Shown: positions 2,787 to 48,842 of the stretch, piece by piece | How the letters are laid out: each line of letters starts with the position of its first letter | How positions within the stretch are numbered: the stretch's first letter is position 1 | Source: an uncultured Candidatus Saccharibacteria bacterium | Lineage (GTDB): Bacteria; Patescibacteriota; Doudnabacteria; UBA920 | Direction: 5' to 3' | DNA length: 64,000 bases | Assembly (NCBI GenBank): GCA_964474825.1 | Contig: CAYYWQ010000001.1 | Coordinates: forward strand, 1,189 to 65,188 | The notes under the pieces: generated by a model | Seen by the model: the letters and a program-made list of their open reading frames with translations, nothing else | What the model was told of the DNA's origin: nothing | Database searches by the model: none | Position numbers and translations under genes: made by a program

Positions 2787-3539
2787 ATGCAAATTGAAGT
2801 TATTTTAAAGAATTTTGGTCTTTCGGAAAAGGAAATTGCCGTTTATTTGGCTTTAATTAGCCTTGGGCCTTCTTCGGTGCGCGATGTTTCCGCCAAGTCC
2901 AAGGTTAACCGCGGGACGAGTTACGATATTTTAAAGTCCTTAATTGCTTTGGGGATTGTTTCTTACTATAATAAAGAATCTAAGCAGTATTTTATGGCAG
3001 AGGCGCCGGAGAAACTGCTTTCGGCCATTGACCAGAAAAAAGAAGATTTAGACGAGGTCCGGGGGAATGTGGAGCAGAGCCTGCCGCTGCTTAAAACTTT
3101 GTTTGAAAAGCAGGGCGGCAAGCCCGTTGTTAAGTTTTATGAAGGCAGTAAAGGCGTAAGGCAAATATTTGAGGACGTGCTAGACGAAGTTGCTACATCA
3201 GTCGATAAGTCTTATTACCTCTACTCTTCTGCAACTGCCGAGCACAGAAAAAATGTTTACGACAGCATGCCGGATTTCAGTAAGCGGAGAATTGCTAAAA
3301 AGATATCAGTCAAAATTATTTCTCTAGGAGAAGGCGGAAAATTAGCAGGAATGGATGAACGAAAGCAAATGCCGGTTTCAAGCAAAGATTTAAAAGCCAC
3401 CCACGAAATAATTTACGCCGGCAAAGTCGCGCACATAAGCATAGACAGCAACGACCAACCCGTAGGCGTAATTATTCAGAACCAGGAAGTTTACAACATG
3501 CAGAAAATGATTTTTGAATTTAATTGGAATAAATTATAG
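2787..3539 (+). CDS. TrmB-family transcriptional regulator
   Basis: N-terminal winged HTH LSEKEIAVYLALISLGPSSVRDVSAKSKVNRGTSYDILKSLIALGIV is typical of TrmB/sugar-specific regulators. A TTGACA-like promoter lies upstream (ttgacaggc near 2751). Confidence 0.6.
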   Translation: MQIEVILKNFGLSEKEIAVYLALISLGPSSVRDVSAKSKVNRGTSYDILKSLIALGIVSYYNKESKQYFMAEAPEKLLSAIDQKKEDLDEVRGNVEQSLPLLKTLFEKQGGKPVVKFYEGSKGVRQIFEDVLDEVATSVDKSYYLYSSATAEHRKNVYDSMPDFSKRRIAKKISVKIISLGEGGKLAGMDERKQMPVSSKDLKATHEIIYAGKVAHISIDSNDQPVGVIIQNQEVYNMQKMIFEFNWNKL

Positions 3540-3540
3540 T

Positions 3541-3640
3541 GAATAGAGAATAGTGCTTAGAGAATAGGATAAAACACTTATTCATTAAGCGCTTGCATTG
3601 TCTTCTCCTATTCTCTACTCGCTAAGCACTAATCGCTAAC
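3541..3640 (+). promoter_or_regulatory. Long imperfect hairpin in the glmS 5' leader; member of the GTAGCG(R)GTAG palindromic repeat family
   Basis: Arms agagaatagtgcttagagaatagga and tcctattctctactcgctaagcac are reverse complements with a bulge. Confidence 0.4.
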
Positions 3641-3644
3641 TCAT

Positions 3645-5465
3645 ATGTGCGGAATTGTTGGATACATTGGAAATAAACAAGCTTTGCCGGTCCTGCTTCA
3701 GGGACTGCGGGATTTAGAATATAGAGGCTACGACAGCGCAGGCGTGGCGGTTTTGGACAATGGAGTTATAGACCGCTTACGTGAAGTGGGTAAGGTGGAC
3801 ATGCTTGTAAAAAAGATAGACGGCAAAAAAATGGACGGCAATGTTGGTATTGCTCATACCCGCTGGGCCACACACGGAGGAGTTACGGAGAGTAACGCGC
3901 ATCCGCATATTGTTGGCAAAGGTAAATTAGCCTTGGTGCATAATGGAATAATAGAAAACTACAGGGAACTAAAGAAAGAGTTAGCGCATCACGACTTTAA
4001 ATCTGAAACCGACAGCGAGGTTTTGGCAGCGCTCATAAACGAAAATTACGACGGGGATTTAACACAAGCTGTAAAAAAATCTTTACTAAAAGTTCGCGGC
4101 ACTTATGGTATTGCTGTTATGCATGCGGAGCATCCGGACATTTTAGTTTTGGCCCGTTTAGGCAGCCCTTTGGCAATAGGCATAGGCGAAGGCGAATACT
4201 ATATTGCTTCGGACGTAACACCAATGCTTCCTTACACTAAGCAGGTGTCTTTCTTAGACGATGGCGAAGTTGCCACAGTAAGCCGTGAGGGCCTTAAAAT
4301 TATAAACTTAAAAGATGAAGTTGTAACTAAAAATATTACGCAAATAGATTGGAACCAGGAAACCGCGCAAAAGGGCGGGTATGAGCATTTTATGCTTAAG
4401 GAAATTTTTGACCAGCCCACTGTTTTTGAAGACGCTATTCGTGGAAGACTTGACATGGACGAAGGCACGGCTCGTTTAGGCGGGCTGAATATGACTTTGG
4501 AACAGATGCGCGATATTAAGCGCGTGATGATTATCGCGGAAGGCACAGCCAGGCATGCCGGACTTATTGCCAAATACGCTTTTGAGCGTTTAGCTAACTT
4601 GCCTACCGAAGTAGATTATTCTTCTGAATTCCGTTACCGGGACCCCATAGTAAATAAATCCACTTTAGTTTTTGTAATTTCGCAGTCAGGTGAAACAGCC
4701 GACACTTTAATGGCTGCCAGGGAAGCAAAAAGAAAAGGCGCCATTGTTCGCGGCATTGTAAATGTAGTTGGCTCTACTATTGCCAGGGAAACCAAAGCCG
4801 GTACATATATTCACGCAGGTCCCGAATTGGCCGTTGCTTCCACTAAAGCTTTTACCAATATGGTTGCCGTACTTATGCTTTATGCATTGCAGTTTGGGCG
4901 TTTAAAGCACACATCTTTAGCCACGGGCCAAAGAATGCTCCAGGCGCTTTTAGAAATTCCTGAAAAAATGAATGAAGTGTTAAAACAGGCAGACACAATA
5001 AAAAAGATTGCGGACGAATATTCAAAATACCAAAACATTTTGTTCATGGGCCGCGGAGTAAATTTCCCTGTGGCTTTGGAAGGCGCGCTTAAACTTAAAG
5101 AAATTTCCTACATTCATGCCGAAGGTTATGCCGGCGGCGAAATGAAGCACGGGCCTTTAGCTTTGGTAAGTAAAGACGTGCCAATTGTGGCAATTTTAAG
5201 TAAAGACCAACTTTACGAAAAAATGAAAAGCAGCATCCAAGAAGTCCGTGCCCGCGGCGCCCGTACTCTAATAATCGCCACAGTCGGCGACGAAGAAGCC
5301 AAAGAAGTGGCAGACGAAATTATTTATGTCCCTGACACCATGGAACTGCTTGAGCCGCTGTTGAACACAATTCCCTTACAGCTATTTGCCTACCATATTG
5401 CGGTTGCGTTAGGACGAGATGTAGACAGGCCTAGGAACTTAGCTAAAAGTGTAACAGTGGAATAA
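3645..5465 (+). CDS. glmS: Glutamine--fructose-6-phosphate aminotransferase (isomerising)
   Basis: N-terminal MCGIVGYIG (Ntn Cys2). Length 606 aa, with two SIS domains and a C-terminal ...AKSVTVE. Confidence 0.95.
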   Translation: MCGIVGYIGNKQALPVLLQGLRDLEYRGYDSAGVAVLDNGVIDRLREVGKVDMLVKKIDGKKMDGNVGIAHTRWATHGGVTESNAHPHIVGKGKLALVHNGIIENYRELKKELAHHDFKSETDSEVLAALINENYDGDLTQAVKKSLLKVRGTYGIAVMHAEHPDILVLARLGSPLAIGIGEGEYYIASDVTPMLPYTKQVSFLDDGEVATVSREGLKIINLKDEVVTKNITQIDWNQETAQKGGYEHFMLKEIFDQPTVFEDAIRGRLDMDEGTARLGGLNMTLEQMRDIKRVMIIAEGTARHAGLIAKYAFERLANLPTEVDYSSEFRYRDPIVNKSTLVFVISQSGETADTLMAAREAKRKGAIVRGIVNVVGSTIARETKAGTYIHAGPELAVASTKAFTNMVAVLMLYALQFGRLKHTSLATGQRMLQALLEIPEKMNEVLKQADTIKKIADEYSKYQNILFMGRGVNFPVALEGALKLKEISYIHAEGYAGGEMKHGPLALVSKDVPIVAILSKDQLYEKMKSSIQEVRARGARTLIIATVGDEEAKEVADEIIYVPDTMELLEPLLNTIPLQLFAYHIAVALGRDVDRPRNLAKSVTVE

Positions 5466-5540
5466 TAGAATTAAGTATGTAGCGTGCCGATTTATCGGCG
5501 AAGTATATTTTAAATTAAAAATTAATCTCTAATAAATTTT

Positions 5541-5810
5541 ATGACTTTCAATAGAGAAAAAGAGCAATTTGAGCAAGAGCCCAAAATTGAAACAGTTGAA
5601 ATTTTAAACCAGAGAATGGAGGGCGAATATCCTATAGTGATGGCTAAGGTATCGGGTCCTGGTTTGGGATTAGAAGGGACGACTGTGACAGTTAAAATGG
5701 GTGGAGATTCGAATCAATTTATCCCAAGAGCTCCCACTTTTATAATTGGTTATGAACAAGAAGTTGTAGACGCCATTAAAGCCAAGCTCTCCGAACAAGG
5801 TGGACATTAA
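5541..5810 (+). CDS. Hypothetical small protein
   Basis: 89-aa ORF in the coding strand between glmS and tdh. No recognisable motif. Confidence 0.35.
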   Translation: MTFNREKEQFEQEPKIETVEILNQRMEGEYPIVMAKVSGPGLGLEGTTVTVKMGGDSNQFIPRAPTFIIGYEQEVVDAIKAKLSEQGGH

Positions 5811-5815
5811 AATTT

Positions 5816-6967
5816 ATGAGAGCATTAATTTTTGACAAATCAAAAACAGAATGGGAAAGCTCGCGCGGGTTTGAGCTCGTAGATGTGGCCGAGCCGGTTT
5901 TGGGGGTGGGTGATGAAGACAAGATTATTTTAAAAGTCCATTATGCCGGAGTGTGCGGCACGGACAAAGGTATTTGGAATAGGCAGGCTTTTAGGGACCA
6001 GATTTTGTCTACTATAGACGAGCAAATAAAGAGCAAGGGTAATCCTTATAGGGTTATTGGCCATGAATTTTTTGGCGAGGTAATAAAAATAGGTTCGGCT
6101 GTAAAGAATGTTAGCGTTGGAGATTTCGTTGCTTGTGAATCCCACGTGGTTTGCAACAAATGCGTTCAGTGTTTAAACGGGCAAAAAGAAGTTTGCACTA
6201 ACGAAAAAATTCTTGGCATAAGTGTTGAAGGCGGGTTTGCGGAATATGCCAAGGTGCCGGCGCAGGTGGCTTGGAAAACAGACACAGGAAAAATAAGGCC
6301 GGAAGTTGCGGCCATGCAGGAACCTTTTGGCAACGCAGTGCACGCGGCCAGCAAAGTAGATTTAAAAGGAAAATCTGTTGCCATTTTTGGTTTAGGTCCC
6401 ATTGGAATGTTTTTGGCTATTGTAGCTAAAGGTATGGGCGCTTCTACTGTAGTTGGTATTGAGCCAAACCCGGTTGCTGAGCATATGGCAAAAAAATTGG
6501 GTGTAGACTACGTTATTCCATTAGGAAAATCAGCCAAAGCTGAACCATACGCGCGCGATGCGGAAGTCATAAAGGAACTTATGGATATTAGCAAGGGCGT
6601 GGGGTTTGACGTAAGTTTTGAAATGGCTGGGTTTAACAGTTCGCTAAATAATTCCATAGCTTCTGTGCGCAGAGGCGGGGACGTAATACTTTTTGGTTTA
6701 AAAAACGGTCATTTTACAATTGACCAGGACTATAACACTTTGGTAATGAAAGGTCTAACCCTACACTGTGTTGCCGGCCGCCAGCTGTGGCAGACTTGGG
6801 AGAAAACCAAAGCGCTTATGGAAGAAGCCAGTAACGGCGTGCAGGAAAAACTTTTTAACGTAATCCTAGACCAAGGCCACGGGACAATTTTGCCCATACA
6901 GGAGTATACTAAAGAAAAGTTTGAGGAAATGATGTCTGAGCACCCTAAATTTTTAATTCAGTTTTAA
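5816..6967 (+). CDS. tdh: Zinc-dependent alcohol dehydrogenase family, L-threonine 3-dehydrogenase-like
   Basis: Catalytic GHEFFGEVIKIG zinc motif, structural-zinc CxxCxxC...C cluster (CNKCVQC), and a Rossmann GLGPIGM. The gene is directly coupled to a downstream kbl. Confidence 0.7.
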   Translation: MRALIFDKSKTEWESSRGFELVDVAEPVLGVGDEDKIILKVHYAGVCGTDKGIWNRQAFRDQILSTIDEQIKSKGNPYRVIGHEFFGEVIKIGSAVKNVSVGDFVACESHVVCNKCVQCLNGQKEVCTNEKILGISVEGGFAEYAKVPAQVAWKTDTGKIRPEVAAMQEPFGNAVHAASKVDLKGKSVAIFGLGPIGMFLAIVAKGMGASTVVGIEPNPVAEHMAKKLGVDYVIPLGKSAKAEPYARDAEVIKELMDISKGVGFDVSFEMAGFNSSLNNSIASVRRGGDVILFGLKNGHFTIDQDYNTLVMKGLTLHCVAGRQLWQTWEKTKALMEEASNGVQEKLFNVILDQGHGTILPIQEYTKEKFEEMMSEHPKFLIQF

Positions 6968-10091: not shown

Positions 10092-10424
10092 ATGGAATTT
10101 AAAAAGGAAACCGTCAAAGAAGCTTTTGCTGTAAAACTTACAGCCCATGAAGGGGGTAAGGAAGTAGGGCGGGCGTTTTTGTATGTGTTAAAAAATGATT
10201 TGCACAAAGAGCCCTTTGGTTTTTTGGAAGACGTTTATGTAGAAGAGGAATATAGGAAACACGGCATTGGCTCCCAGCTTGTGGAAAAGGCTATAGCAGA
10301 AGCTAAAGAACAAGGCTGCTATAAATTAATTGGTAACAGTAGAATGGCCAAAGAAAATGTCCATGCTTTTTACGAACGCTTAGGCCTAAAAAAACATGGG
10401 TACGAGTTTAGGATGGATATATGA
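10092..10424 (+). CDS. GNAT-family N-acetyltransferase
   Basis: Acetyl-CoA binding motif EYRKHGIGSQLVEKAI (R/Q-x-x-G-x-G/A). Length 110 aa. Confidence 0.6.
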   Translation: MEFKKETVKEAFAVKLTAHEGGKEVGRAFLYVLKNDLHKEPFGFLEDVYVEEEYRKHGIGSQLVEKAIAEAKEQGCYKLIGNSRMAKENVHAFYERLGLKKHGYEFRMDI

Positions 10425-11164
10425 GGAATCAGATTGTAATCTTGGCCGCGGGTAAAGGAACCAGAATGGGGCAGAGTAATGTGCCTAAGGTTTTGGTAAT
10501 GCTCCAAAACAAGCCTTTAATTTTGTATTTACTGCACCAATTAGACAAAATTACCCAGCTAATTAAGCCAGTGGTGGTTGTTGGCTATATGTCGGAGAAG
10601 GTGGTGGGGGTGCTAGGGGATGACTATAAATTTGCTTACCAGCAAAAGCAGCTCGGTACGGCTCACGCGCTTTTGTGTGCAAAGCCAAAAATTAAAGCTG
10701 ACAACATTTTAGTGCTGTATGGCGATATGCCGTTTATACAAGCAGGCAGTTTAAAAGAATTTATTAAAATGCATTTACATAGCGGCAGCAACATAAGTAT
10801 GATGTCAGCCCAAGCGCCGGATTTTAAAGGCAAGTTCTCCTCTCTGGAACATTACGGCCGTGTACTGCGTGATGCCTTTCATAATATTATTGGAATTGTT
10901 GAACACAAAGACGCCTCTCTGGTCCAGCGGAAAATAAAAGAAGTTAACCCGGCTATATATATGTTCAACACCAAGTGGCTGTGGCAGCACTTAAAAAAAG
11001 TTGGCAATAAAAATTCGCAAAAAGAATATTATTTAACCGATATTGTGCAAATAGCTATTGAGCACGGAGAAAAAGTTGGCTCGCTGTTAATAAGTCCACA
11101 AGAGGCTATTGGGATAAATAGTAAAGAAGACTTGGTTATAGCAGAGAAATTACTGCAAGATTAG
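10421..11164 (+). CDS. Sugar-phosphate nucleotidyltransferase (GlmU N-terminal-like)
   Basis: ILAAGKGTRM signature motif at the N-terminus, and LVLYGDMP. The gene overlaps the upstream stop (ATGA). Confidence 0.65.
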   Translation: MRNQIVILAAGKGTRMGQSNVPKVLVMLQNKPLILYLLHQLDKITQLIKPVVVVGYMSEKVVGVLGDDYKFAYQQKQLGTAHALLCAKPKIKADNILVLYGDMPFIQAGSLKEFIKMHLHSGSNISMMSAQAPDFKGKFSSLEHYGRVLRDAFHNIIGIVEHKDASLVQRKIKEVNPAIYMFNTKWLWQHLKKVGNKNSQKEYYLTDIVQIAIEHGEKVGSLLISPQEAIGINSKEDLVIAEKLLQD

Positions 11165-11223
11165 AGTGCTGTGTTTGCCCTACGTAGTCCCTTTAGGCAC
11201 GAAGTAGGGGATATCATACGAAT

Positions 11224-11251
11224 TTCCCCCTTAAATAAAAGGGGGATTTTT
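11224..11251 (+). terminator. Rho-independent terminator
   Basis: Stem ccccc ttaaataaaa ggggg followed by atttttag. Confidence 0.6.
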
Positions 11252-11517
11252 AGTGTATTTGGGTTGACCTGAAATAGTATGATAATGTATGATAATATCA
11301 TATAGAGCCTTAAAAAGGGTAGGTGTGGGGACCTAAAACAAAAACTTTTAGGCCCCGCCATCTGCCTTTTCCAGCTTAATGTTTGGCGGTAAGTTATAGA
11401 ACCAAGAGACTTGGTTTTGTAATCTGCCGCCAACCACGTTGTTGGTATCGCCGGCAGAACCCCAATTTGTAGGAGGGGTGGATGCATAAGGTCAAATTTT
11501 TATAAGGGAGAAAGTAG

Positions 11518-12729
11518 TTGGACATACGCCTCAGTTCCACTCTTGGTCAGTTGCAACCGTTGGTCTATCCTCGCTTGGAGAAGGCCAGACTCAACGCCAA
11601 GGCAAAGTTCGGTTCGACCGGAGTCATTAAGTTGACTATCGGAAGTCCCGATCGCCCTGCGCCTGAGAAGATCCGGCAGAAGCTTTCTGCTTCAGCCCAA
11701 GACGCAGAGAAGTATCATTATTCTCTGCCGGCATTCGGTTCACCGGAGCTGCTTAGAGGGGCTTCGGACTATCTGTTTCGCATGGACGAAACACGGCTCA
11801 ATCCCAAAACCCAGATTGTCGGTTTGCCGGGAAGCCGTTACGCAATTGCCGCTGCCATTCGCACGATGATCGATCCAGGGGATTCGGTTTTGGTCCCTGG
11901 GTTCGGCTATCCCGCTTATCGCAACGGTGTTTTGTTGGCTCACGGTCAGGTTGTATACTACTCTGTGAAGCCCACTCTCGACCAATTCGAGCAGATTTAC
12001 AACGCGTATTACAGCGTTGAGCCTGCTCCGCGTGTCCTTGCCGTTTGCTCTCCAGGTAACCCCGCTGGACAGATCAATGAAGAAGACTTCTTCCGGAAGA
12101 TCGTTGCGTTTGCCAAAGAGAACGATCTGTTGATTATTTCGGACGAGGCATATCGGCGGACCTGCTTTGATGGCTTACGGGCACCGGGGTTGATGGAATT
12201 CGACGGAGAAGAGGTTGGAATTTCGACCTGGACTCTGTCCAAGACCATTGATATTCCTGGTCCTCGCGTTGCTTTCGTTCACGGCAACCAGACCATCTGC
12301 GCCGGCCTGAAGAAGATGCATAGCATGTTATTTTATGGAATCTTCCAGGCTATTGAGGATGCTGCAGTAGTAGGACTGGCCGCCGAATTCGACGAGTTTC
12401 CAACGGAAACAGCAGCTATCTATCAGCGACGGCGGGACTTGGTGTGCAACATCTTCGACGCCGCCGGGTTGAATTACATCCGGCCACAAGGCGGAATGTT
12501 TGTTGCTCTGGAAATCCCTAACCGGGGAGATCGGAGCAGTATTGATGTTGCCGCTGAGGTGCTCGAAGCCACCGGCGTTGAGGTGGTTGCAGGAGAAATG
12601 TTCGGACCCGACGGCGAGGACTATCTCCGCATCGCTCTGGTGCAGTCTGATGAGATTATGGAGGATGGTTGCCTGAAGCTCGCAGCTCATTTTCCGGAGA
12701 GCGTCAGAACTCGCGCACGTTTGACCTGA
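11518..12729 (+). CDS. Class I/II (fold type I) PLP-dependent aminotransferase, aspartate/LL-DAP aminotransferase-like. GC-rich foreign-looking gene with a TTG start.
   Basis: 403-aa ORF with aminotransferase class I architecture, including a TLSKT region near the PLP-lysine position. Composition is clearly higher-GC than its neighbours. The start codon is TTG, preceded by gggagaaagtag. Confidence 0.75.
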   Translation: MDIRLSSTLGQLQPLVYPRLEKARLNAKAKFGSTGVIKLTIGSPDRPAPEKIRQKLSASAQDAEKYHYSLPAFGSPELLRGASDYLFRMDETRLNPKTQIVGLPGSRYAIAAAIRTMIDPGDSVLVPGFGYPAYRNGVLLAHGQVVYYSVKPTLDQFEQIYNAYYSVEPAPRVLAVCSPGNPAGQINEEDFFRKIVAFAKENDLLIISDEAYRRTCFDGLRAPGLMEFDGEEVGISTWTLSKTIDIPGPRVAFVHGNQTICAGLKKMHSMLFYGIFQAIEDAAVVGLAAEFDEFPTETAAIYQRRRDLVCNIFDAAGLNYIRPQGGMFVALEIPNRGDRSSIDVAAEVLEATGVEVVAGEMFGPDGEDYLRIALVQSDEIMEDGCLKLAAHFPESVRTRARLT

Positions 12730-12923
12730 TACTCTGGGCGGCGGTTGGTGGATTTTAGCTAGATCCTTCCATACCTCCGCCCTTTGCCCTTTTCTGGAAA
12801 GTTTTTAAAAAGTATGATATCATCATACAGGACATATTAGCATCTTATCATTTTAACATTTTATCATTCTGGTTTCGCAGTTTGATAAAATGATAGTATG
12901 ATAGCATGTTAAAATGATTTTTT

Positions 12924-13766
12924 ATGAATCGTGAACGTTTAACAATTACACTTCGGTCCGACTTGCTTAAGTCGCTGGACTCTTTAATAGACGGCGAGAG
13001 ACTTAGGAACCGCAGCCATGCTATTGAGTATTTTTTGTCGCGCTCTATGGGGGCCAAGAGCGTGAAGGTTTTAATTTTAGCCGGCGGTAAGCCTGTGTAT
13101 TTTGAAAGTGAAAAAAAGAGTTTGCCAAAGACTATGGTTAAAATTGCGGGCAAGCCTTTGCTGGAACAGACTTTGCATAGGCTAAAGGCTTCTAAGTTTA
13201 CAGACATTACTATTTCCATAGGAGAAGGTGGCGAAAGTATAAAAAATTATTTTGGCGACGGCAGCAACATGGGTATAAAAATTAGCTACTTGGAGCAAAA
13301 ATCCCAGAGCGCGGGCAATGCCCAGCCTTTGCTTCAGGCGAAAGAGCATCTTGGCGGCAGCGACTTTCTGATGCTTTATGGTGATGTGCTTTCCGACATA
13401 GATTACAACGATTTTGTAGAATTTCATCGTAGCCAAAAATCTTCAGTCTGCACCATGGCTCTAACCAGCACTGAGTCCGTAGACATGTGGGGCTTGGCGA
13501 GGCTTCAGGGCAATAGAGTAGTGGAGTTTGAAGAAAAGCCCAAAAACCCTAAAACGTTTTCGCGTTTAATTAACGCAGGTATTTACATGATGGAAGCGGA
13601 AATTTTTAAATACATTAGCGGGCAAACAGGAAAATTGGAAGGCCAGGTCTTTCCACGTTTGGCAGAGGAAGGAAAACTGAGCGGATATCCTTTTGAAGGT
13701 TTGTGGCTGGACATTAACAGTAGTGCAGCTTACCGACAAGCGGTTAAGCAAGTTAAAAGTTTATAA
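12924..13766 (+). CDS. Ribbon-helix-helix (CopG/NikR-like) domain fused to a sugar-phosphate nucleotidyltransferase
   Basis: N-terminal RLTITLRSDLLKSLDSLIDGERLRNRSHAIEYFLSRS has a beta-strand + two-helix RHH pattern. It is followed by VLILAGG...LMLYGDVLSDIDY, matching the NTP_transferase fold. Confidence 0.65.
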   Translation: MNRERLTITLRSDLLKSLDSLIDGERLRNRSHAIEYFLSRSMGAKSVKVLILAGGKPVYFESEKKSLPKTMVKIAGKPLLEQTLHRLKASKFTDITISIGEGGESIKNYFGDGSNMGIKISYLEQKSQSAGNAQPLLQAKEHLGGSDFLMLYGDVLSDIDYNDFVEFHRSQKSSVCTMALTSTESVDMWGLARLQGNRVVEFEEKPKNPKTFSRLINAGIYMMEAEIFKYISGQTGKLEGQVFPRLAEEGKLSGYPFEGLWLDINSSAAYRQAVKQVKSL

Positions 13767-17581: not shown

Positions 17582-18968
17582 AAAAACGAAAATAGTTTGT
17601 ACTTTAGGGCCGACTTCGCAGAGTGTTAAGACTTTAACGGAAATGGTAAAGGCGGGGATGAATGTAGCCAGGCTTAATTTTAGCCATGGCGACCATGAAA
17701 ACCATGCCATGCTTATTCGCAACATCCGCTCCGTTGCTAAAAAGTTAAATACCACTATAACAATTATTCAGGATTTGCACGGGCCCAAAATCCGCGTTTT
17801 GGAAATGAAGGAACCAATCAACGTTAAGGTTGGACAAACTGTAATTATTGGCGAAGACTTTAAACTAGACTTGGACGTAATGAAGTCCATAAGGGCTAAA
17901 CAGAGGATTTTAATAGAAGACGGGCTTATTGAACTGGAGGCGGAAAAAGTAGTGGGCGGCAAAATTTACTGCATTGCCCTTTCTCCGGGGAAAATCCAAA
18001 GCCATAAAGGCGTAAACCTGCCCCGCACCAAACTGCACATTCCTATTCTTACCGACAAAGACATTGCGGATTTAAAATTTGGCTTGGATCAAAATGTGGA
18101 CTATGTTGCGTTGTCTTTTGTCCGCAACGCTAAAGACGTAGTCAAACTTCGGGAGTTAATAGAAAAATATAATCCTAAAACTTTCCAAAAGCCTTTAATT
18201 ATTGCCAAAATAGAAAAACCGGAAGCTGTAAAGAATTTTGATTCCATTTTAAGAGTGACAGATAGCGTTATGGTAGCCAGAGGTGACTTAGGCGTGGAAA
18301 TGCCTGAGAACCAGGTGCCTATTATTCAAAAATCTATAATCCAAAAATGCTTGCATGCCAGTAAGCCCGTAATTGTGGCCACGCAAATGTTAGACAGTAT
18401 GATACGAAATCCACGGCCGACCCGCGCTGAAGTTAGCGACGTGGCCAATGCTGTCATAGACCAAACCGACTGCGTAATGCTTAGCGGCGAAACTGCTTTT
18501 GGAAAGTTCCCGGTTAAAGCCGTAAGCGAAATGGCGCGCATAATTGAAACCACGGAAAAATCTGCCTTCCTGCCTGCTCACAAACATTTAGCCGACCGCA
18601 TTGTAAGCAAGACCGAAGCAGTTGCCGAAAGCGTATTTGATTTAGCTATGCATACCAAAGCTAAGGTAATTGTGGGAGCCACGGAGTCAGGGTTTACCGC
18701 AAGGGAAGTCGCGCACGAGAGGCCTTACCATCAACATTTGGTAATGCTTACTCCCAAGGCCAAAACTTTAAGGCAAATAAATATGATATGGGGAGTCCAG
18801 CCGTTTTTGGTAGGCGAAGCTAAAACTTTTGAAGAATTAATGGAGGTAATGTTGGACACGCTGAAGCAAAAAAAATTGGTAAAAAAAGGCGACAAGGTCG
18901 TGGTCGTAACCGGCGAGCCTTTAGGTCAAAAAGAGAATTTAAATATGGTGGAAGTAAAAACAGTATAA
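17574..18968 (+). CDS. pyk: Pyruvate kinase
   Basis: TKIVCTLGP, ARLNFSHG and MVARGDLGVEMP motifs. Length 464 aa. Confidence 0.9.
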   Translation: MNKKTKIVCTLGPTSQSVKTLTEMVKAGMNVARLNFSHGDHENHAMLIRNIRSVAKKLNTTITIIQDLHGPKIRVLEMKEPINVKVGQTVIIGEDFKLDLDVMKSIRAKQRILIEDGLIELEAEKVVGGKIYCIALSPGKIQSHKGVNLPRTKLHIPILTDKDIADLKFGLDQNVDYVALSFVRNAKDVVKLRELIEKYNPKTFQKPLIIAKIEKPEAVKNFDSILRVTDSVMVARGDLGVEMPENQVPIIQKSIIQKCLHASKPVIVATQMLDSMIRNPRPTRAEVSDVANAVIDQTDCVMLSGETAFGKFPVKAVSEMARIIETTEKSAFLPAHKHLADRIVSKTEAVAESVFDLAMHTKAKVIVGATESGFTAREVAHERPYHQHLVMLTPKAKTLRQINMIWGVQPFLVGEAKTFEELMEVMLDTLKQKKLVKKGDKVVVVTGEPLGQKENLNMVEVKTV

Positions 18969-19295: not shown

Positions 19296-19408
19296 TAGGC
19301 GGTTTTTTAATGACAGATTTAAAAAAACAGGATATAATAAAGTTAATGAATCTATCATACTTTGTATGATTTTTTAATAAAAATTTATCCTTAATTAAGA
19401 GAGAATTT

Positions 19409-21949: not shown

Positions 21950-22759
21950 TTAAGGCTTGGCTGTTTCAATAAACGGCTCGTACATCATGATTGCGTGGTT
22001 TTCGGTAATGAGTTCGTCTTTAATTAATTTATTTTGTGGGTCTGTAATTTTTCGGAAAATGGAATTGTGCCTGGTGTAGCCGCCCCACCATTCGTGGTTT
22101 ATGTGGTGGGATTTTTCATAAACTTCGTAGTTAAAGTTGGAGGGGGTATTTGACCGCCATTGTCCAATTAGTTGGTCTTTGGTTAAATTAATTTTAAGTT
22201 GGAAAGTGGCGGAGGTGGGATTAACTATTTGCAAGTCTATATTTGGATAAGCGCAGGTGGCGCCGCTGCCAAAGGGCAGGGTGCGGTTTGCGTCCGGGAA
22301 GACGTCGTACGAATGGCGCCACCGTTCTACTACCTGTAGGGGAGTATGCAGTGTTGCCCAATAAATTAAGTTGCTGACTTGGCATAAACCCCCGCCAGTC
22401 CCGGATTTTACTAACCCGTTGTGGAGTACCATGCCGGTTTTATAGCCGCGGCGTTTAGTTGGCCGGCCAATTAATTTCCAAAAAGAAAATATTTCCCCAG
22501 GGCCTAAAAGCAAACCGTTTATGTGCTGCGCTGCAATTTTTAGGTTGGTAATTTTATTGTGCTGTAAGTGCATATCAACATTGCGAAGCTTGCGCAGCAG
22601 GGTGGATTGGTGCGTAAAAATAACATAAGGAAGTTCTTCCGCTTGAATGCGGCTGGCAAAAGGCAACTTAGAAAAATGCCAGTAAAGTTTTTTTCTAGCT
22701 GTAAAATAAAAACTTCCAAGTATTTTGCGCAGGCGAGACCGGGCTTTAGGTTTGTCCAT
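21950..22759 (-). CDS. VanW-family protein
   Basis: GPGEIFSFWKLIGRP...GTGGGLCQVSNLIY is characteristic of the VanW domain. Confidence 0.65.
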   Translation of the reverse strand: MDKPKARSRLRKILGSFYFTARKKLYWHFSKLPFASRIQAEELPYVIFTHQSTLLRKLRNVDMHLQHNKITNLKIAAQHINGLLLGPGEIFSFWKLIGRPTKRRGYKTGMVLHNGLVKSGTGGGLCQVSNLIYWATLHTPLQVVERWRHSYDVFPDANRTLPFGSGATCAYPNIDLQIVNPTSATFQLKINLTKDQLIGQWRSNTPSNFNYEVYEKSHHINHEWWGGYTRHNSIFRKITDPQNKLIKDELITENHAIMMYEPFIETAKP

Positions 22760-22895
22760 AAATATTGCTTAGCAATGTTAGGGGAATTATATAATATAAA
22801 GCTTGAATTGTCAGGGGCTTTGCTCTTGATAAAGGCCTGTTTTAAGTGTAAAATTAAGCATCGCAGTTTTTGTTTGAATCTGAACGGAGGCCGTA

Positions 22896-23749
22896 TGTTC
22901 AAGTTGTTTTTGCGTTTACAGTTGTGGCTGGTAAAGGCGGCAGAGTGGATCCCGCTGGGGAACTATAAACCCGCAAGAACCAAAGCCCGGCAACTCAACG
23001 GTAGGACAGTGCTTCTCATCTGCGCTCACTGCGACGATGAGTCCATGTCCATGATGCCGTTGGGCGTTCGATACCAGGAGGAAGGCTACCAAGTCGTATG
23101 CCTGACCTTAACCATAGGCAAAGAACCTAAAGACAAAGTCCGGCGCAGAAAGGAGCTGCTAAAGGCCTGTAACTTTATGGGGATACAAAGTGTGCTATTG
23201 GTGCACGAGGGAGTGTTGCGGGAGATCAAAAGCAAGGACCCCGCAGATCACGAAATCGTTATCTCGAGGCTGACTCGAGAGATTGCTATAGTTCGGCCGC
23301 ACACTATTATTCTCCACGGCCTGGACCGGCACCCTGACCACATCGCGGTTTGTAATTTCACGCTGGAAGCACTCAAGCGTATGCCCGGATTTAGTTGTGT
23401 GTTGGCTTTCTCTGAGTTCTGGGGAAAGCTGACGCGGCCAAACGTCCAGGTCCAAATTTCAGTCAAGAACTTAGCGTTCTTGCTGAAAGCGCTTTCGTTC
23501 CACGTTGGCGAACTGAGTCGCAATCCATACCACCTGCTCTGGCCGTTCATGCTCATGCTGAACCGCCTGTACAGTGAAGTGGTATCAGGGTGGGGAGGAA
23601 AAGCTACACCCTTCCCTCTGTCGGCGTTGTACGAGGTGGTCCTGTGTACCGACGGCATGGTGAGCGATTTCATTAAACCGCCCGAAGGCGCCAACGGGAT
23701 CCAACTTGCGCTTACGGACTCCCTTTCCACTTTAATGCCCAGCAACTAA
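22896..23749 (+). CDS. PIG-L/LmbE-family N-acetylglucosaminyl deacetylase-like protein (GC-rich)
   Basis: LLICAHCDDESM (a variant of the AHPDDE zinc-binding motif) and a downstream HPDH. I chose the start at ATG 22896 because of the ggagg RBS. The longer six-frame ORF starting at 22568 overlaps the VanW gene on the other strand. GC content is clearly above the local background. Confidence 0.6.
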
Positions 23750-23906
23750 CAACTCTATGAAAACTGAGGCCGGCGGCAGCGTTTAGCAGACAGTTATCGC
23801 TAAACGAGCCGCCGGTTGCTTGTTTGTAAATTCAGTTTAATTTAAAATAAATGCCCTGGCTTTTATCTGCTGTTTATGATAAAATAATCAAGACTTTTGC
23901 GACCAT

Positions 23907-23996
23907 GGAAGCGTCGCATAGTGGTCGAGTGCACCGCCTTGGAAAGGCGGCAGGGTGTTACAGCCCTCAAGGGTTCGAATCCCTTCGCTTCCGCCA
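23907..23996 (+). tRNA. tRNA-Ser (anticodon GGA)
   Basis: Cloverleaf with a GGAAGCG/CGCTTCC acceptor stem, an anticodon loop TTGGAAA giving anticodon GGA, a long variable arm, a GGTTCGAATCC T-arm, and an encoded CCA. Confidence 0.85.
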
Positions 23997-41094: not shown

Positions 41095-41632
41095 GTGAAT
41101 CCGCCTTTATCAGTAAGCTATAATATATGGCTGATACAAGGAAATATTCCGACCGCGCAGAGTATCTTAAAAAAGCAGTTGATAAAAGACGCAAAAAGAT
41201 CAAAACCATGGCCATTGCCTATAAGGGCAATAAGTGCACATTCTGTGGTTATGATAAATGCGCCGGAGCCCTAGAGTTCCATCATCTTGACCCAAAAGGA
41301 AAAGATTTTGGACTAGGACAAAATGGTTTAACCCGTTCTTGGGAGAAGACCAAAAATGAACTAAACAAATGTGTATTAGTTTGCTCCAACTGCCATAAAG
41401 AAATTCATGCAGGTCTGTTGCAGCCTTCTCAAGTAATTGAGAACGGAAAAACGAGGTGAATTGCTGGAAACCTTTAAAATGGTAATCAGCAGCCAAGCCC
41501 CACCAATGTGGGGAAGGTTCAGAGACTATCTCGCAAGAGAGTACTTAGATCGAAAGATCTTGGGAAGCCCCTCGCATCCCTCCATCGGGGATGATGATAT
41601 AGTCCACTCTTAATAGAAATATTAAGGCAAGG
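41095..41632 (+). mobile_element. Group I self-splicing intron carrying a homing-endonuclease ORF
   Basis: The internal guide sequence GGCUGA (41129-41134) pairs with the exon-1 end UCGGCU, with a U.G pair at the splice site. Adjacent UAUA can form P10 with the exon-2 start UGUA. Conserved core elements are present: P aattgctggaaac, Q aatcagcagcc, R gttcagagactatc and S gatgatatagtcc (the last close to the S consensus AAGAUAUAGUCC). The terminal base is G. Confidence 0.8.
41127..41459 (+). CDS. HNH homing endonuclease, intron-encoded
   Basis: CTFCGYDKCAGALEFHHLDPKGKDF...CVLVCSNCHKEIHAG is an HNH motif with a Cys4 zinc scaffold. The ORF lies entirely in the peripheral P1-P2 region of the intron, and its stop codon abuts the P element. 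Confidence 0.75.
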   Translation: MADTRKYSDRAEYLKKAVDKRRKKIKTMAIAYKGNKCTFCGYDKCAGALEFHHLDPKGKDFGLGQNGLTRSWEKTKNELNKCVLVCSNCHKEIHAGLLQPSQVIENGKTR

Positions 41633-41794
41633 TGTAACCGATGGGTCCTGGGTTCGAATCCCAGCTCCCGAGCCAACAAAGGACATCTCTTAAATGGAGG
41701 TGTTTTTTGTTTAAAAAATGTTAAGTTAAATAGAATGCTGAATAATAAACCTGGTATGATATACTAGCTTAAGAAGCCTTAAAGGCTCGCCCGT

Positions 41795-48563: not shown

Positions 48564-48842
48564 ATTTTTCACCTCCTCTCGGTGTATTAATAATAAATAA
48601 TTTAATTTACAGTCGCATCCGCAACAGTTAAAATAAAATTTAGGAAAAATAAAAACCGAACACTCTATTACAATGTCCGGTTTCGCCACTGGCCTATCCG
48701 TGATTATAAGGCGACCAAATAATAAATCACGGGTTTTCGGCTTACACTTTATTTAATTCTCTTGCGCATATATTAAAACGAATATCTAACAAGAAAGTTA
48801 CATTTTATGTTGAATAAAATTAACTTCTTGGTTAAAAGGGTT

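Follow-up and report, generated by a model that had tools for sequence, protein, structure and literature searches.

A GC-rich aminotransferase gene in a repeatedly refilled slot between NikR-like palindromes of a Doudnabacteria genome

The DNA considered here (the window) is a stretch of 64,000 nucleotides of a Doudnabacteria genome, and the element in question is an aminotransferase (AT) gene that lies between a GlmU-like gene (10421-11164) and a gene (12924-13766) coding for a ribbon-helix-helix (RHH) domain joined to a nucleotidyltransferase-like domain (RHH-NT). We call this interval the slot; it is shared by about 25 Doudnabacteria relatives with the same palindromes. Judged from composition and homology, the window AT gene is a horizontally acquired, partly ameliorated cassette. 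We further conclude that the boxes around it are putative operators through which RHH-NT would regulate its own gene together with the slot cargo and the gene of pyruvate phosphate dikinase (PPDK); binding, repression and a ligand we infer from sequence comparison. Taken as a whole, this reading of a foreign AT gene in a repeatedly refilled slot, with boxes that serve as RHH-NT operators, appears probable to us. The features on which it is built are as follows (coordinates in the window, strand in brackets).

11207-11219 (-): isolated half-site on the upstream side, GGGGATATCATAC (minus-strand GTATGATA at 11212-11219), situated ahead of the GlmU-like terminator
11225-11251 (+): intrinsic terminator of the GNAT/GlmU-like operon, with an 8-bp stem, 5 G-C pairs and a T-run (terminator scan)
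11264-11303 (+): predicted AT promoter and operator (promoter scan, pattern searches), with -35 TTGACC at 11264-11269, box GTATGATA at 11277-11284 and palindrome GTATGATAATATCATAT at 11287-11303
11317-11370 (+): leader hairpin HP1 (11317-11366) and a U-tract, terminator- or attenuator-like; part of the conserved framework, not of the cassette
11371-12811 (+): variable, foreign-derived cassette of 52.4% GC (second leader hairpin, upstream open reading frame, AT gene, GC-rich terminator), bounded by nucleotide homology
11460-11505 (+): proximal leader module, consisting of the hairpin CCCC-N11-GGGG (11460-11478), which includes GGAGG, and a 7-codon upstream open reading frame (uORF)
11518-12729 (+): class I/II pyridoxal phosphate-dependent AT gene, the slot cargo; AlaA/DapL-like, 403 aa, TTG start
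12736-12785 (+): GC-rich terminator hairpin GGGCGGCGG...CCTCCGCCC and a short T-run, the right end of the cassette
12795-12828 (+): predicted RHH-NT promoter and operator; palindrome GTATGATATCATCATAC (12812-12828) overlaps the -10 TATCAT
12844-12918 (+): A+T-rich leader hairpin of the RHH-NT mRNA (read from the sequence), with inner inverted repeat TTTTATCA/TGATAAAA (12859-12866 and 12883-12890, N16 between), outer inverted repeat ATCATTTTAACAT/ATGTTAAAATGAT, an extra box GTATGATA at 12896-12903 and GTATGATAGCATG at 12896-12908
12924-13766 (+): RHH-NT gene; residues 1-45 NikR-like RHH, residues 48-280 sugar-1-phosphate nucleotidyltransferase-like; proposed binder of the boxes
19354-19370 (+): third operator-like site ATCATAC-TTT-GTATGAT, preceded by a TATAAT-like -10 and followed by the PPDK start codon (19409)

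Base composition of the cassette

The AT open reading frame (ORF) has 53.6% GC in a window of 41.5% GC and is the GC-richest of the 57 window ORFs (mean 42.0%, sd 3.4; z ~3.4). Against the 14 neighbouring ORFs its z value is 7.2. All three codon positions are shifted toward GC (GC1/2/3 = 60/43/58%; mean GC3 of the window ORFs 42%, sd 6), and no window ORF has a lower codon-adaptation index, taken relative to the remaining ORFs (0.619; mean 0.746, sd 0.037; z = -3.5). An earlier note on this DNA had described the gene as about 55% GC in a genome of about 40%, with a different codon bias. The two GC figures are close enough and the codon bias is borne out; the note had also named native genes of about 55% GC as evidence against an import, and no other window ORF reaches the GC content of the AT gene.

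The GC content rises at about 11400-11500 and drops at 12800. The bounds of the cassette were set by blastn against L004, L009, L012 and others (L-numbers denote loci of relatives), and the cassettes of relatives end in terminators of a similar GGGCGG...CCGCCC style. Since the sequences derive from metagenome-assembled genomes (MAGs), a sharp change in composition at the cassette ends could in principle stem from an assembly or binning chimera. We consider the probability of this to be negligible: an identical 21-kb stretch is present in an independent Logan assembly and in the 1.21-Mb contig that encodes the AT protein, the AT protein itself has an identical copy in the Logan assembly, MAGs and metagenome contigs from different studies, more than 20 in all, share this architecture, and the conserved promoter and leader directly abut the ORF.

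A second GC-rich gene of the window codes for a PIG-L/LmbE-type deacetylase (22895-23749, +; the enclosing ORF 22568-23749 has 49% GC and a GC3 of 60%). It is associated with a hairpin at 23770-23815 that has the same GGCGG...CCGCC terminator style as the AT cassette, and it adjoins tRNA-Ser(GGA) (23907-23996). This looks like another imported gene.

Occupants of the slot in relatives

Around homologs of RHH-NT, which their sources label Candidatus Doudnabacteria or Patescibacteria, 44 genome loci and 80 metagenome loci were gathered. The Doudnabacteria-like loci share the gene order Kbl, CofD/YvcK, GNAT, GlmU-like, slot, RHH-NT, GAPDH, IMPase. On its 5' side the slot consists of the isolated half-site, a terminator, TTGACA (-35), the box GTATGATnn, a palindrome that contains the -10 TATGAT, and the leader. 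On its 3' side the cargo is followed by a GC-rich terminator, an A+T-rich stretch and the second palindrome, which covers the -10 of the RHH-NT promoter.

About 20 relatives have a single slot ORF of 340-450 aa, nearly always an AT of family PF00155, and in 20 of 21 cases the slot ORF is the GC-richest of its locus (z up to 9). The cargo proteins fall into at least eight groups that are mutually 21-30% identical, while the RHH-NT, GlmU-like and GAPDH flanks are 50-90% identical. The clearest pair is L016 (the same relative as L002) and L018, where the flanks are 87-90% identical in protein and ~80% in DNA and the ATs share only 22% of their residues and no nucleotide homology. DNA homology between the two ends 53 nt past the upstream palindrome and restarts 30 nt before the downstream palindrome. 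Likewise, L004 is the nearest relative of the window by its flanks (RHH-NT 81% identical), yet its AT is only 27% identical to that of the window. The more distant L016 carries an AT ortholog that is 49% identical and has 52.3% GC in flanks of 40% GC. Identity matrices thus give AT relationships that are incongruent with those of the flanks, the outcome that the earlier note had looked for in a phylogeny. Two relatives carry GC-rich cargo other than an AT, namely a HAD-kinase fusion (L017) and a PfkB kinase (L030).

In other relatives the slot is vacant. The flanking orthologs, which the earlier note had suggested might be adjacent in relatives, are only 125 bp apart in L049, where a single palindrome is left, and 169 bp apart in L024; in L014 a decayed remnant lies between two retained palindromes. 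L049 is nested among relatives with occupied slots, so its empty slot looks like a loss of cargo, and probably is one. For this reason these loci do not demonstrate that the insertion had duplicated the operator, as the earlier note had suggested. The proposal of a foreign cassette upstream of RHH-NT stands as far as its composition and its discrete nature are concerned; a recent, one-off insertion is not what the relatives display. Their cargo has instead been swapped for unrelated ATs or other GC-rich genes, or lost, a case of in situ xenologous displacement, and it probably passes from relative to relative by recombination in the conserved flanks. No mobility gene or tRNA adjoins the slot of the window, and no integrase or recombinase is encoded in any of the ~25 slot loci.

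Several relatives show further peculiarities. The L057 slot (3040-5553) has 3.1 kb between two perfect palindromes and holds a 405-aa ORF of native composition and a GC-rich 399-aa ORF (52% versus 38.5% for the rest of the locus) without an AT match. In L002 (9050-9075, 9614-9635) and also in L018, the GlmU-like gene is separated from the AT promoter by a PaaX_M/Cas2-like gene (174 aa), bracketed by its own distinct palindrome AAATGACGGCCGTCATTTATA; this PaaX_M/Cas2-like gene is absent from the window. In L129 (2897-3443) a BrnT/BrnA toxin-antitoxin pair with a CopG-type antitoxin separates the L022-type AT cargo from the RHH-NT gene. The single palindrome of L049, GTATGATACTATCATAT (5986-6002), overlaps the RHH-NT ATG and lies 17 nt after TTGACA, which suggests a leaderless, operator-covered start.

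Origin of the cargo

For one type of cargo, that of L022, a foreign origin can be demonstrated from homology. At 63% GC and with a GC3 of 80%, the L022 cargo lies between flanks that have 40% GC. It is of a different AT subfamily and is 82-86% identical to ATs on megabase-size contigs, some of them named 'Candidatus Limn...'. One of these AT loci, the donor-like one, has 74% GC, and its AT gene stands in a housekeeping gatCAB context; DNA identity with L022 is 80% and is confined to the ORF. The junctions of L022 recur in an independent assembly (L130) and in a second Doudnabacteria lineage (L129), which carries cargo of the same type. Ordered by GC3, the loci form an amelioration series.

Donor-like locus: GC3 96%; flank identity not applicable
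L022 / L129: GC3 80% / 73%; flank (RHH-NT etc.) identity 76%
Window / L016: GC3 58% / 55%; flank (RHH-NT etc.) identity 63-69%

Early acquisition from a donor of very high GC can thus account for the window AT, with no special force needed. We take the AT cassette to be foreign because the slot cargo varies and is GC-rich between conserved flanks and because one cargo matches a genome of 74% GC. The acquisition is not recent, since the L016 slot holds the ortholog described above, which is just as GC-rich at 49% identity. We infer a GC-rich donor for the window's AT as well, from which the gene would have been imported with its foreign codon usage and GC-shifted amino-acid composition and then partly ameliorated to its present 53.6% GC. 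Two separate imports of related AT genes into the window lineage and L016 are possible.

A native, vertically inherited AT gene that owes its high GC content and its fast evolution to a locally acting process, for instance GC-biased gene conversion in a recombination hot spot, or to selection on the mRNA would account for several of these observations: GC-richness is common to almost all cargos, the window and L016 orthologs are both GC-rich at their level of identity, and most cargo ATs match the same broad AlaA/DapL models with gradually decaying scores. It fits poorly with ATs that are unrelated in DNA between the ~80% identical flanks of L016 and L018, with an L022/L129 cargo that comes from another subfamily and shares 85% identity with genes from a genome of 74% GC, with non-AT cargos that are GC-rich too, and with a GC shift that affects all three codon positions. 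We regard vertical inheritance as distinctly unlikely and prefer an old horizontal acquisition.

The aminotransferase

The start of the AT gene is well defined. An in-frame TAG (11515-11517) lies directly 5' of the TTG, the Shine-Dalgarno sequence AAGGGAG (11504-11510) lies 7 nt ahead of the start, and NCBIfam profile alignments begin at residue 4, which makes the TTG the true start. The description in the earlier note of a 403-aa class I/II AT with a TTG start is therefore confirmed. Several apparent TTG starts of cargo genes in relatives (e.g. L007, L012) are longest-ORF artefacts, as they are located within the leader hairpin, and among the cargo genes only that of the window has a secure TTG start. 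On the opposite strand, a 108-aa ORF (11161-11487) was rejected as spurious; it has no Pfam match and overlaps terminator, promoter and leader.

In a search of the window proteins, PF00155 is the sole Pfam match of the AT (171 bits versus a cut-off of 19.7; residues 35-380), and DegT/DnrJ/EryC1/StrS (PF01041) is not matched. The sequence alignment places Tyr68, Tyr131, Asn181, Asp209, Tyr212, Ser241-Lys242 and Arg371 at intact catalytic positions. The same residues are invariant in all 16 slot ATs examined and in six reference sequences; judged from them, the slot ATs are working enzymes rather than decaying copies. The best full-length NCBIfam models are those of LL-diaminopimelate aminotransferase (DapL) and alanine transaminase (AlaA), and the scores stay below the equivalog cut-offs (PRK09276, 248.5 versus 507 bits; TIGR03540, 245 versus 593; PRK08175, 221 versus 647). 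The best database match, P0002, is 49% identical and occupies the same slot in a relative; outside this one same-slot ortholog the closest matches are Bacillota DapL-like proteins at 36% identity. All relatives of solved structure are alpha-amino-acid ATs.

By sequence criteria the window AT thus belongs with the class I alpha-amino-acid ATs (AlaA/DapL type), not with the sugar ATs. This speaks against recruitment into an amino-sugar nucleotide pathway, which the earlier note had read from the gene context. The upstream genes do include GlmS, a homolog of the GlmU N-terminal domain and a GNAT, and also Tdh/Kbl; the downstream genes are glycolytic. The AT gene shares its putative operator with the PPDK gene, and PPDK is its predicted co-regulated partner.

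Palindromes and promoters

The box GTATGATA occurs eight times in the window, where 1.04 copies are expected (none of 100 shuffles reaches eight), and five of the eight cluster within 11212-12903. The 17-bp palindrome GTATGAT-N3-ATCATAC, with up to two mismatches allowed, has exactly two copies in the 64 kb, which flank the AT gene at 11287-11303 and 12812-12828 (expectation 0.12; no shuffle out of 100 gives two). It is found at the same two places in L002. The earlier note had recognized such boxes on both sides of the gene, with coordinates that need correction by 1-8 nt: the array is at 11277-11302 (not 11278-11303), the downstream palindrome at 12812-12828 (not 12811-12827), GTATGATAGCATG at 12896-12908 (not 12888-12900) and the repeat TTTTATCA-N16-TGATAAAA at 12859-12890 (not 12858-12889).

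Both palindromes are intimately linked to predicted promoters. The -10 TATGAT of the AT promoter (11288-11293) forms part of the upstream palindrome's left half. In 13 relatives the layout TTGACA-N-GTATGATnnt-GTATGATAnTATCATAC is kept. Ahead of RHH-NT genes of relatives, a palindrome or tandem boxes are found 15-185 nt upstream. At the position of the isolated half-site most relatives retain the element GTGGATATCATAC, and hairpins equivalent to the terminator at 11225-11251 occur in relatives as well. The third site, ahead of the PPDK gene, was found in four to six genomes; it is kept in L002, L018 and L005 and is degenerate in L009 and L015.

This arrangement would also be compatible with palindromes that are primarily recombination sites, either att-like or as homology anchors, for insertion, swapping and excision of cassettes, with regulation being secondary. 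The variable segment is bounded ~30-55 nt from both palindromes, the cargo has been replaced repeatedly, and the empty L049 slot with its single copy is what recombination between identical copies would leave. Nevertheless, we find this explanation unlikely. The upstream palindrome is separated from the swapped ORF by HP1 and the uORF module, so the junctions do not coincide with it. Cassette-free lineages have the same half-sites as tandem direct repeats in front of RHH-NT, such half-sites also precede the PPDK gene, the palindromes overlap -10 hexamers, no integrase or recombinase is found in the ~25 loci, and the half-site equals a NikR box next to a gene whose product has a NikR-like RHH domain. 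The boxes are thus most likely not insertion scars, and we return to their role as operators below.

Two more copies of the box lie outside the slot and the operator-like sites. A solitary GTATGATA (18397-18404) within the pyruvate kinase gene may be due to chance. Another isolated copy (41754-41761) is situated just 3' of a group I intron (41353-41626, +; RF00028, 91.7 bits).

The RHH-NT protein as candidate binder

The two parts of RHH-NT are recognized by Pfam as RHH_1 (PF01402; 22.8 bits versus a cut-off of 20.5) and NTP_transferase (PF00483; 112.9 bits versus 21.2). In the AlphaFold2 model, which drew on 40 database proteins and has a mean predicted local distance difference test score of 82.5, residues 1-11 are extended and are followed by helices 12-21 and 30-45, ahead of the nucleotidyltransferase domain. 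Throughout the family the RHH domain hardly varies, with the beta-strand RERLTITL and the helix motif RNRSHAIE (RERLTITL...LRNRSHAIE), and its only match in the PDB is Escherichia coli NikR (E = 1.6e-3). Arg5, Thr7 and Thr9 presumably correspond to Arg3, Thr5 and Thr7, the base-contacting residues of NikR in the 2HZV structure. An exact-sequence look-up of the RHH-NT protein returned no record.

The best solved relatives of the second domain are of the UGPase, ManC and RmlA types. Nucleotidyltransferase catalysis requires the nucleotide-binding loop GxGTR. RHH-NT has GGKPVYF where the solved enzymes have this motif (AGKGTRV, GGFGTRL), and Pro57, Val58 and Phe60 of this segment are nearly invariant across the family. 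As GGKPVYF replaces GxGTR, the domain may be a ligand sensor; it would probably sense a nucleotide or sugar-nucleotide and in this way set the affinity for DNA.

The published signal of enterobacterial NikR is GTATGAT-N13/14-ATCATAC (PMC545781), also given as GTATGA-N16-TCATAC (PMC7055735). The half-sites in the window are identical to those of this signal; at N3, their spacer is shorter by roughly a helical turn. Within the 155 nt ahead of RHH-NT genes, exact GTATGAT is enriched 25-50-fold in three classes of divergence from the window protein.

RHH-NT at least 60% identical: 8.8 GTATGAT per kb upstream versus a background of 0.18 per kb; site present in 25/32 loci
RHH-NT 45-60% identical: 5.6 per kb versus 0.16 per kb; 33/56 loci
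RHH-NT less than 45% identical: 3.2 per kb versus 0.13 per kb; 6/18 loci

In other lineages of the Candidate Phyla Radiation (CPR) the sites are often tandem repeats with a 10-bp period. RHH dimers would bind the boxes in this 10-bp register, and RHH-NT bound in this way would block access to the -10 of the AT promoter and to that of its own; in the case of PPDK, a similar site is placed just downstream of the promoter.

It is also conceivable that the boxes are operators for some other protein whose gene has another genomic location, for example a true NikR or a second RHH protein, and that RHH-NT is just one of its targets. The half-site is, after all, that of enterobacterial NikR, and inspection covered 64 kb of 1.21 Mb. 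On the other hand, the boxes track RHH-NT genes over distant CPR lineages with differing neighbourhoods, RHH-NT has a NikR-like RHH domain that is almost invariant, no other protein with an RHH domain of this type is encoded within the 64-kb window, and an N3 spacing is unfit for the NikR tetramer, which spans N13-16. We therefore rate this explanation as very unlikely and retain RHH-NT as the proposed binder.

Several points weigh against the reading proposed here. On the side of the regulator, some RHH-NT homologs have no GTATGAT boxes upstream, the PPDK site carries its half-sites in everted order, and the predicted promoters and transcription starts are matches to consensus only. The scan for further sites covered the same 64 kb of the 1.21-Mb genome, and the protein that truly binds the boxes could be one from another part of the genome. 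The variable segment is framed almost exactly by the palindromes, an arrangement that would suit a role in recombination as well. On the side of the import, the database matches of the window AT contain no close donor, and a donor-like lineage is available only for the L022-type cargo. Moreover, the window and L016 ATs are both GC-rich at 49% identity, which needs either slow amelioration or two imports.

Leader RNAs

The operator and the AT start are 214 nt apart, and this stretch folds unusually well (z = -6.2). HP1 is present in at least 16 loci, and in the 16 loci compared its basal stem is invariant and seven distal pairs show compensatory changes. It is retained where the AT gene is gone (L014) and where other cargo is present (L017, L057). 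Homology of the leader with relatives stops at 11370. One arm of HP1, CCGCCATCTGCC, was considered as a DNA-uptake sequence and rejected: the 64 kb contain a single exact copy, and allowing up to two mismatches does not bring the count above chance.

The proximal two-hairpin module ends in GGAGGGGTG(A)ATG, the ATG being the start of the uORF (11482-11505), which runs to a TAA and encodes MHKVKFL. The module precedes unrelated ATs in ten loci, with differing stem sequences. As it is shared ahead of unrelated ATs, replacement is in essence ORF-for-ORF behind the resident promoter, operator and leader. The structure of its hairpins (HP3/HP4) is taken from single-sequence folds; RNAalifold on MAFFT alignments, which are not structure-aware, gave an outer 6-bp stem or nothing for this part of the leader. 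A scan of the whole window yielded no Rfam family at gathering score for the AT or RHH-NT leaders, and in E-value mode 11150-13000 gave only miRNA-type hairpin-like chance matches for both.

The A+T-rich leader hairpin of the RHH-NT mRNA is of the window type also in L009. In L006, L013, L008, L005, L019 and L049 it is formed from different repeats (CTACAGAA/TTCTGTAG), and by comparison of these sequences the structure of the RHH-NT leader is conserved with its sequence replaced between relatives.

Other features of the window

The window starts with the 3' end of the 23S rRNA gene (1-500) and the 5S rRNA gene (651-766). A c-di-GMP-II-GAG riboswitch aptamer (48666-48754, -; RF03169, 42.2 bits versus a gathering score of 40) lies upstream of minus-strand genes.

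Significance

That an AT gene has been gained by horizontal transfer is, as a claim on its own, ordinary. Gene regulation in the CPR (Patescibacteria) is almost uncharted and the organisms are uncultured, and RHH-NT with GTATGAT-N3-ATCATAC provides a concrete candidate pair of regulator and operator that is conserved over hundreds of metagenomic loci. In it, a NikR-type DNA-reading head would have been moved to a different sensor or enzyme domain, with the spacing of the half-sites shortened by one helical turn. The slot offers a natural series of ORF-precise replacements in a fixed, regulated position, with one import that can be traced to a 74% GC genome; this amounts to an empirical amelioration series and may show the DNA-exchange partners of these episymbionts. 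In addition, there is a conserved structured leader without an Rfam family.

A more far-reaching view, which we put forward tentatively and consider doubtful, is that Doudnabacteria possess an 'expression socket' that repeatedly takes in foreign GC-rich AT ORFs under a new class of regulator, with the leader as a new cis-regulatory RNA. The socket would consist of the resident promoter, the NikR-type operator and the structured leader (HP1, HP3/HP4) with its uORF. The AT ORFs would possibly come from the bacteria lived on; if so, the nearest relatives of the cargo point to hosts, an example being the 74% GC 'Candidatus Limn...' lineage for L022. The regulator class would then be a previously undescribed fusion of a NikR-derived RHH domain with a catalytically altered sugar-nucleotidyltransferase fold, and this fold would act as a sensor of nucleotide-sugars or NTP that links alanine/pyruvate metabolism (AT, PPDK) to the status of cell-envelope precursors.

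Comparison with known systems

Horizontal transfer, in situ xenologous displacement and RHH repressors are each of a kind already known. It is the combination of a NikR-type head on a nucleotidyltransferase fold, an N3 operator, a conserved structured leader and ORF-precise swapping of a cytoplasmic enzyme in a CPR genome that appears undescribed in the literature searched, in which no description of an RHH-nucleotidyltransferase fusion was found either.

The slot resembles in situ xenologous displacement and replacement-type flexible genomic islets in that conserved flanks enclose non-orthologs of the same function and of atypical composition. It differs from them in that its cargo is a cytoplasmic aminotransferase rather than a surface or glycosylation gene, in that the swaps are in essence ORF-precise behind a conserved promoter, operator and leader, and in its reduced CPR host. 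Integron cassettes are similar insofar as single promoter-less ORFs are exchanged at a fixed site with a resident promoter and palindromic bounds. Unlike integrons, the slot has no integrase or attI/attC-type site, and its 17-bp perfect palindrome also occurs at promoters that are not associated with a cassette. With AlaA and DapL the window AT shares the best full-length models and the catalytic residues of fold-type I, but it scores far under the cut-offs (248 versus 507 and 221 versus 647 bits).

Repressors fused to enzymes are represented by PutA (RHH and proline dehydrogenase), NadR (helix-turn-helix and NMN adenylyltransferase) and BirA (helix-turn-helix and biotin ligase). RHH-NT likewise joins a DNA-binding domain to a metabolic or nucleotidyl-transfer domain and has a predicted autoregulatory operator, and its small-molecule site could couple metabolism to transcription. 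In contrast to these proteins, its partner domain is of the RmlA/GlmU/ManC type and carries the GGKPVYF loop, so that it may be a sensor rather than an enzyme.

The closest parallel is with E. coli NikR (PDB entries 1Q5V and 2HZV). The RHH domains are alike (RERLTITLRSDLLKSLDSL..NRSHAIE in RHH-NT, QRVTITLDDDLLETLDSL..NRSEAIR in NikR), the 7-bp half-sites GTATGAT/ATCATAC are identical, and in both cases the operator is palindromic and placed at a promoter. The systems differ in the spacer, which is N3 in all copies here and N13-16 in NikR, and in the C-terminal part, where RHH-NT has a PF00483 sugar-nucleotidyltransferase fold instead of the ACT-like domain that binds nickel and mediates tetramerisation. 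The predicted targets are the AT, RHH-NT and PPDK genes rather than nickel transport, and tandem direct arrays of boxes occur next to the palindromic form.

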